Of a DNA stretch of 64,000 bases, positions 7,978-63,466 are shown in pieces. The notes beneath the pieces were generated by a model that saw only the letters and a list, made by a program, of their open reading frames with translations, made no database searches and was not told where the DNA came from. The position numbers were made by a program, and so were the translations under genes. Numbering within the stretch: the stretch's first letter is position 1; every line of letters starts with the position of its first letter. The DNA lies in the NCBI GenBank assembly GCA_045642125.1, contig JAZUIE010000012.1:5151-69150 (forward strand), read 5' to 3'. This stretch comes from Acutalibacteraceae bacterium (GTDB taxonomy: Bacteria > Bacillota > Clostridia > Oscillospirales > Acutalibacteraceae).

Positions 7978-8120
7978 TTTTACCACCCCTATAAATAATA
8001 TTATATATGATAATATATTATATATATATATAAATATATAATAGTATAACATAATATAATATAGTTTTCAACATTTATTTGCGTTTTTGTTGACAAAACC
8101 GCACGGATAAAAGATTTTTG
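7978..8120. other. Putative oriC segment: AT-rich unwinding-element candidate (about 7990-8065) plus DnaA-box-like 9-mer
   Basis: About 75 nt of almost pure A/T (ataaataatattatatatgataatatattatatatatatataaatatata...) lie directly upstream of dnaA. TGTTGATAA (1 mismatch to TGTGGATAA) sits at 8119-8127. No cluster of perfect boxes was seen. Confidence 0.4.
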
Positions 8121-8149
8121 TTGATAAATATGAAAAAATGTGGTATTAT
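8121..8149 (+). promoter_or_regulatory. Sigma-A-type promoter driving the tRNA-Pro transcription unit
   Basis: -35 TTGATA (8121-8126), 17-nt spacer, extended -10 TGgTATTAT (8141-8149). The only downstream terminator lies after tRNA-Pro. Confidence 0.5.
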
Positions 8150-8211
8150 TATCGGGCGTTCAAAAAAAGAGAACAAAACAAACAGTATTGATATAAAAAA
8201 ATTTAATATTT

Positions 8212-8362
8212 CGAGGTGTAGCGCAGCAGGACACGCGCCAGTTTTGGGTGAGAAATGCGAGTGCGTCCTGCGGACGATTAAACGAGCAGTTCGAAGCGCT
8301 GCGGTCGATAGGTGCGCCACGCTCCAAGTGAGCGCAACATCGGGCACCGCAAGAGGGTTGCC
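8212..8362 (+). ncRNA. Unclassified structured element, copy A: truncated tRNA-Pro-like 5' head (8212-8248) fused to a conserved ~115-nt domain (8249-8362)
   Basis: The head repeats CGAGGTGTAGCGCAG and GCGCCAGTTTTGGG of the tRNA-Pro gene at 8420. The domain aligns without gaps to 18321-18434. Helices: 8252-8258/8286-8292, 8264-8268/8272-8276, and a long irregular hairpin 8301-8350. Strand was assigned from the promoter/terminator context. All pairs are Watson-Crick, so pairing alone does not orient it. Confidence 0.55.
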
Positions 8363-8419
8363 AAAACAGGCTGAAAAAAAACATAAACAAATTTTATTAT
8401 ACTTACAATTTAACAATTT

Positions 8420-8495
8420 CGAGGTGTAGCGCAGTTGGTAGCGCGCCAGTTTTGGGAACTGGATGCCGCAGGTTCGAGCCCTGTCACCTCGACCA
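8420..8495 (+). tRNA. tRNA-Pro (anticodon UGG)
   Basis: Cloverleaf read by eye: acceptor CGAGGTG/CACCTCG, D arm GCGC-AGTTGGTA-GCGC, anticodon arm CCAGT-TTTGGGA-ACTGG, T arm GCAGG-TTCGAGC-CCTGT, encoded CCA. Confidence 0.93.
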
Positions 8496-8502
8496 AAACA
8501 AA

Positions 8503-8532
8503 AAACCTATCACGAAAGTGATAGGTTTTGTT
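8503..8532. terminator. Bidirectional rho-independent terminator (tRNA-Pro and the convergent DUF4956 operon)
   Basis: Stem ACCTATCAC/GTGATAGGT with a GAAA loop, an A-run upstream and a T-run downstream. Confidence 0.7.
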
Positions 8533-18060: not shown

Positions 18061-18089
18061 TTGACTTTTTTGAGTCTTTGTGATAAAAT
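18061..18089 (+). promoter_or_regulatory. Sigma-A-type promoter of the tRNA-Ser operon
   Basis: -35 TTGACT (18061-18066), 17-nt spacer, extended -10 TGaTAAAAT (18081-18089). Confidence 0.6.
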
Positions 18090-18104: not shown

Positions 18105-18191
18105 GGAGAGGTATCGAAGTGGTCATAACGAGGCGGTCTTGAAAACCGTTTGGGGCAACCCACAAGGGTTCGAATCCCTTCCTCTCCGCCA
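18105..18191 (+). tRNA. tRNA-Ser (anticodon UGA)
   Basis: Acceptor GGAGAGG/CCTCTCC, anticodon arm GCGGT-CTTGAAA-ACCGT, long variable arm, T arm AAGGG-TTCGAAT-CCCTT, encoded CCA. Confidence 0.92.
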
Positions 18192-18294
18192 TTTTTAAGA
18201 AAACTTTCCGCTTTTTTTGAACACAAAACGAAAAAAACGAGAAAGTTACACATAGACGACAATTTAATACCAAAGATATTTATGTTATCAATAC

Positions 18295-18434
18295 GGAGTA
18301 GTACAGGGGCTGGTGACGGGCTACGGTTTCGAGTGCGTCCGGTGGACGAAGAAACGAGAAACGGTAGGCGCAGCGGTCGATAGGTGCGCCACGCTCCAAG
18401 TGAGCGCAACATCGGGTACCGCAAGAGGGCAGCC
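18295..18434 (+). ncRNA. Unclassified structured element, copy B: truncated tRNA-Ser-like 5' head (18295-18320) fused to the conserved domain (18321-18434)
   Basis: The head shares GGAGTAGTAC and GCTGGTGACG with tRNA-Ser(GCU) at 18516. The 37-nt leader 18258-18294 is 34/37 identical to 18479-18515. Domain helices: 18321-18330/18358-18367, 18336-18340/18344-18348, and hairpin 18373-18422. Confidence 0.55.
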
Positions 18435-18515
18435 GAGGAACGTATATAAAACACAAAAAAGTTAAAGCAGAATATAAAGACAATTTAATACTAAAGATAT
18501 TTTAGTTATCAATAC

Positions 18516-18606
18516 GGAGTAGTACTCAAGCTGGTGACGAGGCACCCCTGCTAAGGGTGTAGGTCGGGTAACCGATGCGAGAGTTCGAATCTCTCCTACT
18601 CCGCCA
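18516..18606 (+). tRNA. tRNA-Ser (anticodon GCU)
   Basis: Acceptor GGAGTAG/CTACTCC, anticodon arm ACCCC-TGCTAAG-GGGTG, long variable arm, T arm GAGAG-TTCGAAT-CTCTC, encoded CCA. Confidence 0.92.
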
Positions 18607-63023: not shown

Positions 63024-63097
63024 TGGAGGCACCACCCAGATTCGAACTGGGGATAAAGGCTTTGCAGGCCCGCGCCTTACCACTTGGCCATGGTGCC
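63024..63097 (-). tRNA. tRNA-Cys (anticodon GCA)
   Basis: Reverse complement is GGCACCATGGCCAAGTGGTAAGGCGCGGGCCTGCAAAGCCTTTATCCCCAGTTCGAATCTGGGTGGTGCCTCCA. Acceptor GGCACCA/TGGTGCC, anticodon loop CTGCAAA, T arm CCCAG-TTCGAAT-CTGGG. Confidence 0.88.
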
Positions 63098-63152
63098 GAA
63101 TATGTAATTTTTAGTTTATTAAAGGGCACTTAAAAGACTTTTAAGTGCCCTA

Positions 63153-63228
63153 TGGAGCGGATTACGTGGCTCGAACTCGCTACCTCAACCTTGGCAAGGT
63201 TGCGCTCTACCAGATGAGCTAAATCCGC
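63153..63228 (-). tRNA. tRNA-Gly (anticodon GCC)
   Basis: Acceptor GCGGATT/AATCCGC and anticodon arm CAACC-TTGCCAA-GGTTG. By my reading the T stem carries one A-A mismatch. Confidence 0.85.
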
Positions 63229-63231
63229 AGA

Positions 63232-63307
63232 TGGTGCCTCCGGTCGGAATCGAACCAACGACACGGGGATTTTCAGTCCCCTGCTCTACCGACTGAGCTA
63301 CAGAGGC
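63232..63307 (-). tRNA. tRNA-Phe (anticodon GAA)
   Basis: Acceptor GCCTCTG/CGGAGGC, anticodon arm GGGGA-CTGAAAA-TCCCC, T arm GTTGG-TTCGATT-CCGAC. Confidence 0.92.
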
Positions 63308-63310
63308 AAA

Positions 63311-63387
63311 TGGCGACCTGGATGGGGATCGAACCCACGACCTCTAGCGTGACAGGCTAGCGTTCTAACCAGCTGAACTACCAGGCC
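63311..63387 (-). tRNA. tRNA-Asp (anticodon GUC)
   Basis: Acceptor GGCCTGG/CCAGGTC, anticodon arm CTAGC-CTGTCAC-GCTAG, T arm GTGGG-TTCGATC-CCCAT. Confidence 0.92.
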
Positions 63388-63390
63388 AAA

Positions 63391-63466
63391 TGGTGGGAAC
63401 AATAGGGCTCGAACCTATGACCCTCTGCTTGTAAGGCAGATGCTCTCCCAGCTGAGCTATGCTCCC
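63391..63466 (-). tRNA. tRNA-Val (anticodon UAC)
   Basis: Acceptor GGGAGCA/TGTTCCC, anticodon arm TCTGC-CTTACAA-GCAGA, T arm ATAGG-TTCGAGC-CCTAT. Confidence 0.92.

Follow-up and report, generated by a model that had tools for sequence, protein, structure and literature searches.

A conserved two-domain repeat at partial duplications of tRNA and other genes in gut and rumen Clostridia

Two tRNA operons within the 64,000-nucleotide stretch of DNA analyzed here (the window) each contain a copy of a repeat of about 112 nt, termed E, that extends from GGG to AAGAGGG and is organized into two hairpin domains, D1 (helices P1 and P2) and D2 (helix P3). The family is found in over a hundred gut and rumen Clostridia, the E fold is under selection, and copies of E are located at partial duplications of neighboring genes. 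The preferred explanation, which is given an even chance and no more, is that E is a non-autonomous mobile repeat whose fold is needed for propagation and that is transcribed as part of tRNA operons.

The two copies in the window and their tRNA operons

Copy A (8246–8357, + strand) is part of a tRNA-Pro unit and is supported by a covariance-model match (8243–8357, 100.2 bits), by its fold and by covariation within the family. A strong promoter-like site (TTGATA-17-TATTAT, TG-extended, 10 of 12 matches) is located upstream of the fragment-E-tRNA-Pro unit at 8121–8149 on the + strand, and a weaker one (9 of 12 matches) lies between E and the tRNA gene at 8371–8400. Further upstream, between a minus-strand reading frame ending at 8052 and the tRNA-Pro unit, positions 7990–8075 form a very AT-rich, low-complexity divergent promoter region (tatatatatataaatatat...). 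A comparison of the filled with the intact gene identifies 8212–8248 (+ strand) as L_A, a truncated duplicate of positions 1–37 of tRNA-Pro(UGG) with a diverged D-loop, which terminates at the anticodon-loop GGG that is also the first GGG of E. The similarity of L_A to the intact gene ends at ...TTTTGGG|AACTGG, and the breakpoint reads ...CCAGTTTTGGG|TGAG in the filled and ...CCAGTTTTGGG|AACTGG in the intact version; judged from this comparison, the point at which copy A entered a duplicate of tRNA-Pro follows G37 in the anticodon loop. Within copy A (all + strand), D1 consists of P1 (8252–8258/8286–8292), the tandem GA motif and P2 (8264–8268/8272–8276), followed by the linker (8293–8300), D2 with P3 (8301–8350) and the tail (8351–8357). 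The tail is followed by an antisense copy of the end of L_A (TTGCCAAAACAGGC, 8358–8371, + strand) that matches the antisense of tRNA-Pro positions 26–39. In the minimum-energy fold, this segment (8361–8371) pairs with 8237–8247 and thereby forms an outer helix, P0, that encloses E. The intact tRNA-Pro(UGG) gene (8420–8495, + strand) and a bidirectional terminator (8502–8529) complete the unit.

Copy B (18318–18429, + strand; covariance-model match 18315–18429, 104.1 bits, with the same fold) is located between two tRNA-Ser genes. The operon opens with a promoter-like site (18061–18089, + strand), followed by tRNA-Ser(UGA) as its first gene (18105–18191, + strand). A first direct repeat (18258–18318, + strand) comprises 37 nt of leader and L_B, a truncated duplicate of positions 1–24 of tRNA-Ser(GCU) (18295–18318, + strand), and the second (18478–18606, + strand; a 60-nt repeat with a score of 85) comprises the leader and the intact tRNA-Ser(GCU) gene (18516–18606, + strand) called by ARAGORN. 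Between them, P1 (18321–18330/18358–18367), P2 (18336–18340/18344–18348), P3 (18373–18422) and the tail (18423–18429) of copy B are arranged as in copy A on the + strand. The similarity of L_B to the intact gene ends at ...GGTGACG|AGGCAC, with ...GGTGACG|GGCTAC in the filled and ...GGTGACG|AGGCACCCC in the intact version, which places the entry point of copy B, by alignment, at TGACG|AGG in the D arm of a copy of tRNA-Ser(GCU). No further promoter-like site was found on the + strand before tRNA-Ser(GCU) other than the one at 18061–18089, and copy B must therefore be co-transcribed with the tRNAs of the unit tRNA-Ser(UGA)-[fragment-E]-tRNA-Ser(GCU). More generally, the location of E inside tRNA operons in the orientation of the tRNA genes leads to the inference that it is transcribed with the tRNA precursor. 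The tRNA-Ser(GCU) gene was not reported by the Rfam tRNA model at the gathering threshold, probably because of its long variable arm. Elsewhere in the window, five tRNA genes (Cys, Gly, Phe, Asp and Val; 63024–63466, minus strand) are not accompanied by a copy of E.

The first-pass annotation had described a gap-free alignment over 104 nt (8259–8362 and 18331–18434) with 15 differences between the copies, and a recount gave exactly 15. In copy A coordinates, the differences affect the P2 loop (8269 and 8271), the bulge (8278 and 8279), the 3' strand of P1 (8287, 8289–8293 and 8295), the linker (8300), the 3-nt bulge of P3 (8345) and the sequence past the tail (8358 and 8359). The statement that the copies differ almost only in loops thus applies to eight of the 15, located in loops, bulges and linkers, but not to the seven in the 3' strand of the closing helix, which, as the same annotation also stated, are compensated by changes 5' of 8259. 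The closing helices of both copies pair as claimed, the small hairpin CGTCC-NNN-GGACG is present in both, and the 50-nt hairpin said to carry a single difference occurs exactly twice in the window (8301–8350 and 18373–18422, C/T), with a chance expectation of none. D2 is identical at 49 of 50 positions, and P1 is diverged. The annotation had not included the 5' tRNA fragments directly upstream of both copies (8212–8248 and 18295–18318), the large size of the family, or the fact that the association is not specific to tRNA-Pro and tRNA-Ser. Folding of both strands had been put forward as a check; the minimum-energy folds of copies A and B display the same two-domain structure, but the energies are unremarkable (z between −0.6 and −2.2 on either strand). 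Stability is therefore unusable as evidence, and the case for the fold rests on covariation within the family.

A widespread family with a covarying fold

A scan of species-representative genomes for the pattern GCGGTCG-N(25-55)-CGGGNACCGCAAGAGG(G) identified at least 120 E loci, and the same pattern identified eight loci on viral contigs, all with the tRNA-Pro arrangement. The taxa among the matches listed are all Clostridia, mostly Oscillospirales together with Anaerovoracaceae and others, and a cultured strain, Ruminococcus flavefaciens 007c, is among the carriers of E. With a covariance model based on 18 diverse copies, 109 copies were recovered in 98 sources, and the only matches within the window were copies A and B. 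A search of a phage collection returned one distant relative with compensatory changes (contig unverified), and a search of plasmids returned no match. Rfam 15 reported nothing on E in the window at the gathering level, nothing on E within 8100–8520 with E-values up to 10, nothing on E in 12 other loci at the gathering level and nothing in E and the tRNA fragment of locus L077; a literature search found no description of an element like E.

The element begins with GGG(C/T). P1 comes next, with roughly 10 bp that are free in sequence; a tandem G.A motif and two base pairs separate it from P2, a hairpin of 5 bp that has a loop of 3 nt and a bulge of 5 nt (AUACA). By way of the linker GGCGCA, the element continues into P3, which consists of GCGGU/ACCGC, a 3-nt bulge and a long variable stem, and the element ends with the tail AAGAGGG. 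Near-identical domains are common to E copies at different loci within one genome, D1 and D2 recombine independently (the copies in the window are nearly alike in D2 but not in P1, and locus L128 contains the same D1 with a different D2), and internally deleted "solo" forms occur. Head-to-tail copies with a single common GGG were identified at L054 and L128, indicating that GGG is the point at which E, acting as a unit, can be permuted or concatenated; a terminal redundancy beyond this common GGG was considered and rejected since it is inconsistent among copies.

Among 107 distinct E sequences, 94.3% of the pair cells are standard pairs compared with 72.9% after shuffling (none of 500 shuffles reached the observed value), and sliding the partner strands as a control left 26–51% paired. 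Changes on both sides were found in 21 of the 27 pairs, and double-change cells were observed 544 times where 167 are expected. The apparent invariance of the P3 base results from the search pattern, which fixed those letters: in a metagenome scan anchored on D1 and the tail, the P3 base covaries as well (GCAGU/ACUGC and GUGGU/ACCAC, and CA..UG replacing CG..CG). The earlier proposal of selection on a fold rather than on a coding sequence, made from two copies, is much strengthened by these homologues.

D2 and the tail resemble tRNA-Trp from the 3' strand of the D-stem through the 5' strand of the T-stem (GGCGCA-GCGGU...ACCGC-AA-GAGGG in E, GAGCA-GCGGU-CUCCAAA-ACCGC-GUGCC-GAGGG in tRNA-Trp). 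The motif GCU(C/A)CAAG is present in P3 in 19 of 80 representative sequences, usually at the tip, and at L053 the 5' part of a tRNA-Trp continues straight into P3. On the strength of this resemblance, D2 probably descends from, or recombined with, a tRNA-Trp gene (anticodon arm). The tRNA covariance model gave no score on E in either of the regions searched (8100–8520 and L077).

Which strand is functional is less clear. G-U pairs make up only about 1% of the pair cells in the helices; over all pairs they are about as frequent as A-C (34 vs. 30), and in the well-aligned helices they are more frequent (24 vs. 7), which leans weakly toward the + strand, that is, the tRNA strand. The latter counts fit a function of RNA or of the + strand as well as a function of DNA. 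The first-pass caveat that the strand is undecided and that a single-stranded DNA or mobile-element structure cannot be excluded proved apt, given the insertion-like location of E at partial duplications of target genes.

Several of these observations are also expected if E serves the host, either as a non-coding RNA or as a leader or spacer that acts in cis in tRNA operons. It would be cut from the tRNA precursor and influence how tRNAs mature, how stable they are or how they are transcribed, or else act in trans as a small RNA; the tRNA fragments would then be functional decoys or pairing partners. The strong structural covariation, the preference for G-U over A-C in well-aligned helices and the roughly 45 unpaired positions that are near-invariant agree with such a function, as do the location of E between promoter and tRNA or within operons, the recurrence of the same loci across many species, and the orientation of E, which is shared by 75 of the 78 tRNA genes within 400 nt of a copy. 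The recurrent arrangements (E 5' of tRNA-Pro(UGG), and tRNA-Ser(UGA)-E-tRNA-Ser(GCU)) could reflect long vertical retention under host selection instead of mobility. However, a host RNA accounts poorly for copies that follow guaA, lie in the duplicated 5' end of a protein gene, are antisense to 6S RNA or are found in REP-like hairpins, for the 3'-type copies downstream of a tRNA terminator (see below), for the tandem, truncated and solo forms and the homogenization of copies within genomes, and for the rarity of G-U pairs. As a complete account it is considered unlikely, although it remains a serious contender; a host RNA function alongside mobility is not excluded, and the two may coexist.

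Target duplications and breakpoints

A survey of direct repeats was conducted on the 84 copies with at least 250 nt of flanking sequence, and repeats with a score of at least 36 were classified as clear (the maximum among shuffled sequences was 25). A clear direct repeat was identified around 46 of the 84 copies: 19 of the 5' type, 15 of the 3' type, four tandem and eight other. In the 5' type, to which both copies in the window belong, the leader and the 5' part of a gene are followed by E, 26–60 nt and the intact gene, and the duplication is 27–90 nt long. In the 3' type, an intact tRNA gene with its terminator is followed by 65–110 nt, E, 0–25 nt and the 3' part of the same tRNA, often with its terminator, and the duplication is 21–106 nt long. 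The truncated copy of the target abuts E in every case of either type, which leaves an intact gene beside E. The remaining 38 copies lack a clear direct repeat at this threshold, and several of these show degraded repeats; the absence of a clear flanking repeat from 38 of 84 copies speaks against mobility. A look-up of the exact protein sequence of the neighboring gene, used for an empty-site comparison, found no record.

Antisense copies of the target are a second component of these loci. The 5' flanks of 3'-type copies contain an antisense tRNA segment of 15–36 nt across the junction (antisense of positions 29–62 at L046), so that the target is arranged sense-antisense-sense, and the 3' flanks of 5'-type copies often contain the antisense of the last 9–20 nt of the fragment. 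The suggestion that hairpins were already present and received E in their loops agrees with tRNA-Pro and with the REP-like hairpin; it fails at L064 and L090, where the antisense arm is new. A second suggestion, that the left end of the direct repeat is a transcription start, was rejected because loci of the L001 type do not fit.

The breakpoints follow a simple rule. On the left, the breakpoint is at a GG(G) of the target in every filled/intact comparison: TTTGGG|A in the anticodon loop of tRNA-Pro, GACG|AGG in tRNA-Ser, GCCG|AGGG in tRNA-Trp, CTCG|TTGGG in tRNA-Met and TTTGT|CGGGG in an RNase III frame. On the right, it is at GAGG, GAGGG or CAAGAG of the target, as in GAGGG|TTCGA of tRNA-Trp and CAAGAG|GCC of tRNA-Pro(CGG/GGG). 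These motifs match the ends of E itself, GGG... and ...CAAGAGGG. All three tRNA-Pro isoacceptors are targeted, which fits an NGG anticodon followed by G37.

The targets are not restricted to tRNA genes. At L090, E is located in the 5' end of a mini-RNase III reading frame, where 48 nt are duplicated and the frame is restored; at L060, in R. flavefaciens 007c, E directly follows the guaA stop codon; and identical repeats of 94 and 99 nt flank E at L045 and L112. The 3' flank at L045 contains a foreign piece of a tRNA T-arm, indicating that donor flank travels with E. Some copies lie in a hairpin loop of the REP-like type (CTCCCTC-TGAC-GAGGGAG). Near E, several genomes contain a recurring palindrome of this type, GGCTCCCTC-TGAC-GAGGGAGC (L094 at 2511–2528; L024, L036, L057, L065 and L126), and some E copies are located in its loop, following TGAC; the palindrome is absent from the window. 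At L064 (307–504, minus strand), the end of a 6S RNA gene identified by an Rfam match is duplicated (59 nt) around an E copy on the opposite strand.

Other loci display more complex arrangements. At L113 (370–1270, minus strand), a 355-nt unit consisting of E, a short tRNA-Met fragment, an antisense anticodon arm, an intact tRNA-Met and a terminator is repeated, such that each tRNA-Met has E on both sides. L026 contains two matches to Gut-1 RNA (RF01706; 5003–5077 and 5123–5189) just 3' of E in a tRNA cluster. L129 and L120 contain arrays of tRNA-Pro 3' fragments with another insert of about 48 nt in the T-loop. At L001 (440–820), L005 (after 6700), L129 and L120, tRNA-Pro 5' halves are located 3' of E arrays, each with about 150 nt of a different sequence on its 3' side (GCATAGACGG..., repeats of TTTGACCAC, and ACAATTTAATAA before the next half); these sequences look like the ends of integrative elements or prophages that enter the anticodon loop of tRNA-Pro and supply a 5' half. 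At L010 (59–1195), the order is a tyrosine-integrase gene, a 3' half of tRNA-Met just beyond the end of that gene, E, and another 3' half; the latter is degraded, and the divergence of its terminator is accompanied by compensating changes.

Duplicated tRNA parts are the hallmark of a further alternative, according to which E is the leftover attachment-site region of integrase-mobilized islands or prophages that target tRNA genes and the partial tRNAs are old att repeats. In such elements, partial tRNA repeats typically begin in the anticodon loop or T-loop and continue to the 3' end (bioRxiv 10.1101/2020.12.28.424599, and general background). An integrase gene adjoins the L010 copy, and on viral contigs the different sequence that abuts the tRNA-Pro 5' half beside E arrays can be read as a prophage in the anticodon loop. 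The direct repeat corresponds to the 3' part of a tRNA in the 15 3'-type copies and to the 5' part in the 19 5'-type copies, and several targets lie outside tRNA genes. Against this reading, the breakpoints are spread over many tRNA positions and over other genes; the repeats are only about 200 nt apart, with E alone between them; an integrase is encoded by only two of the 150 nearest reading frames; and compensatory evolution of three helices is unexpected for protein-binding arm sites. An origin of E as an att remnant is unlikely, and we would be surprised if it proved correct.

Known classes of elements and the mode of spread

No protein was found to be linked to E. Among the 150 nearest reading frames at more than 75 E loci, no Pfam family was represented more than four times, and none of the 25 families listed was a reverse transcriptase or transposase family; an associated integrase, reverse transcriptase or transposase was therefore rejected for lack of enrichment. 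Known classes of small elements also fit poorly. E does not qualify as a MITE, since there are no element-constant terminal inverted repeats (those around E are local target copies and site-specific) and no fixed short target-site duplication (those of E are 21–106 nt and variable). The hairpins of D1 and D2 and the invariable GG(G) at the left breakpoint are as in IS200/IS605-type or REP elements, but the long duplications are not, and no transposase is among the families listed near E, a search restricted to the neighbors. An integron attC site was excluded because the family consensus lacks the R''/R' core (RYYYAAC ... GTTRRRY) and ends in GGG(C/T) and CAAGAGGG. A group I intron in the tRNA anticodon loop would agree with the insertion after G37 of tRNA-Pro, but the 3' exon is missing, the insert is 112 nt long and no intron model matched. 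A tRNA gene with a giant insert was rejected because the fragments have no 3' (or 5') acceptor partner and ARAGORN calls only the intact genes. The consensus of E contains CGGGNACCGC, which resembles part of the T-box sequence; a T-box leader was rejected since no T-box model matched, the downstream genes are tRNAs and the UGGN bulge is absent. For the self-cleaving ribozymes found next to tRNAs (HDV-like "theta", hammerhead, twister, hatchet and pistol), no match to a class consensus was found on E.

A ribozyme of a new class is one form of another alternative, in which E is an RNA that processes itself, either as a self-cleaving ribozyme of a new kind or as a small circle resembling a viroid. 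Its DNA copies would arise when a reverse transcriptase jumps to abundant RNAs as templates, and E would then correspond, in bacteria, to retrozymes or to SINEs with a tRNA head. The two-domain fold with conserved internal loops, the GGG-bounded unit that can be joined head to tail (L054 and L128) and the choice of highly expressed RNAs as targets are in line with this proposal, and the GGG junctions, snap-back antisense segments and A-rich 3' flanks resemble the products of template switching by reverse transcriptases. It is weakened by the lack of a match to any known ribozyme model, by the lack of a reverse transcriptase among the families listed for the neighboring reading frames and by the lack of cleavage data; moreover, leaders and terminators are included in the direct repeats, which rules out mature RNAs as the templates. 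We assign this proposal only a slim chance. Slimmer still is its most specific version, in which E is the genomic trace of a self-propagating, GGG-bounded RNA of about 112 nt that is reverse-transcribed, jumps at GGG onto highly expressed RNAs (tRNA precursors, 6S RNA and mRNAs as proposed acceptors) and recombines into the genome as chimeric cDNA; if true, it would be the first bacterial analogue of a tRNA-headed SINE or retrozyme.

The closest known systems each share part of these features. REP/BIME and IS200/IS605-derived palindrome-associated elements are mobilized in trans by HUH Y1 transposases. Like E, they are short, non-coding, multi-copy and strand-specific, lack a gene of their own, are defined by hairpins rather than terminal inverted repeats and have a short target motif beside one end (GGG for E). 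Unlike them, E is far more conserved across genera, contains two elaborate domains, has no transposase link that could be found, and is associated with target duplications of 21–106 nt and antisense target copies that are not products of peel-and-paste transposition. The rtT locus downstream of tyrT in Escherichia coli consists of units of about 178 bp, each with a tRNA-Tyr 3' end. It resembles E loci in its tandem units within a tRNA operon, each with part of the adjacent tRNA and transcribed with it, but is known from a single locus of one lineage and not as a conserved structured element at many genes and in many species. Eukaryotic tRNA-derived SINEs share with 5'-type copies a tRNA-related head, a structured body, an A-rich flank and target duplications of variable length, whereas the tRNA head at E is a copy of the neighboring gene and not part of the element, and 3'-type copies carry the tRNA at the other end. 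We know of no partner reverse transcriptase for E. Att-site arrays of tRNA-targeting integrative elements (tycheposons, bioRxiv 10.1101/2020.12.28.424599) likewise contain partial tRNAs beside an intact tRNA, sometimes arrayed, but at E there is no integrase or cargo between the repeats, duplications of 5' parts are common and some targets are not tRNAs. Template switching during replication is reported to generate tandem duplications and small inverted triplications with templated insertions (PMC13334657, PMC11293582). Such rearrangements resemble 3'-type E loci in their sense-antisense-sense order and 5'-type loci in their X-insert-X order, and microhomology is found where the parts join, but they are sporadic, whereas E loci have the same conserved element at the junction each time. 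The general kind of element, a small hairpin-defined bacterial repeat, is already known; REP, MITE and IS200/IS605-derived elements, attC sites and att remnants are not characterized by a conserved two-domain fold, by long duplications of the target together with antisense copies, or by junctions that follow the GGG/GAGGG rule.

The multi-copy nature of the family, the duplication junctions at many kinds of genes, the microhomology at both ends, the donor flank carried along, the tandem and deleted forms and the homogeneity within genomes all make a purpose-built regulator of tRNA-Pro and tRNA-Ser unlikely. For the non-autonomous mobile repeat favored here, the products look like a duplication or triplication with a templated junction insert, an outcome that in other systems marks iterative template switching, and copy-choice guided by GGG/GAGGG microhomology is inferred from it. 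On this view, E and part of the sequence flanking it at the donor site would reach a new site when the template is switched while DNA is being synthesized or RNA reverse-transcribed, the source being single-stranded DNA at a fork or an RNA intermediate. The target would end up either duplicated in tandem or as a small inverted triplication, and E would lie where the copies meet. The hairpins would be kept because the folded single strand (DNA or RNA, possibly circular) is what is copied. In the tRNA operons, E would presumably be removed from the tRNA precursor during processing, and the outer helix formed by the target fragment and its antisense copy may keep E folded apart from the tRNA. No enzyme, intermediate or pair of empty and filled alleles was found, and template switching is inferred from the architecture of the products only. 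The strict conservation of the two-domain fold implies a specific partner, be it an enzyme, a behavior of a polymerase or self-catalysis, the identity of which is unknown.

The covariance model allows E loci to be annotated, and with it the adjacent tRNA-like pieces need not be mistaken for tRNA genes that are split or contain an intron. If E is mobile, it is a gene-less element that enters essential, highly expressed genes without killing the host, since the interrupted part is duplicated, and pseudo-tRNA fragments, tandem arrays and rearrangements in Clostridia of the gut and rumen would have in E a widespread source that has so far gone unannotated.
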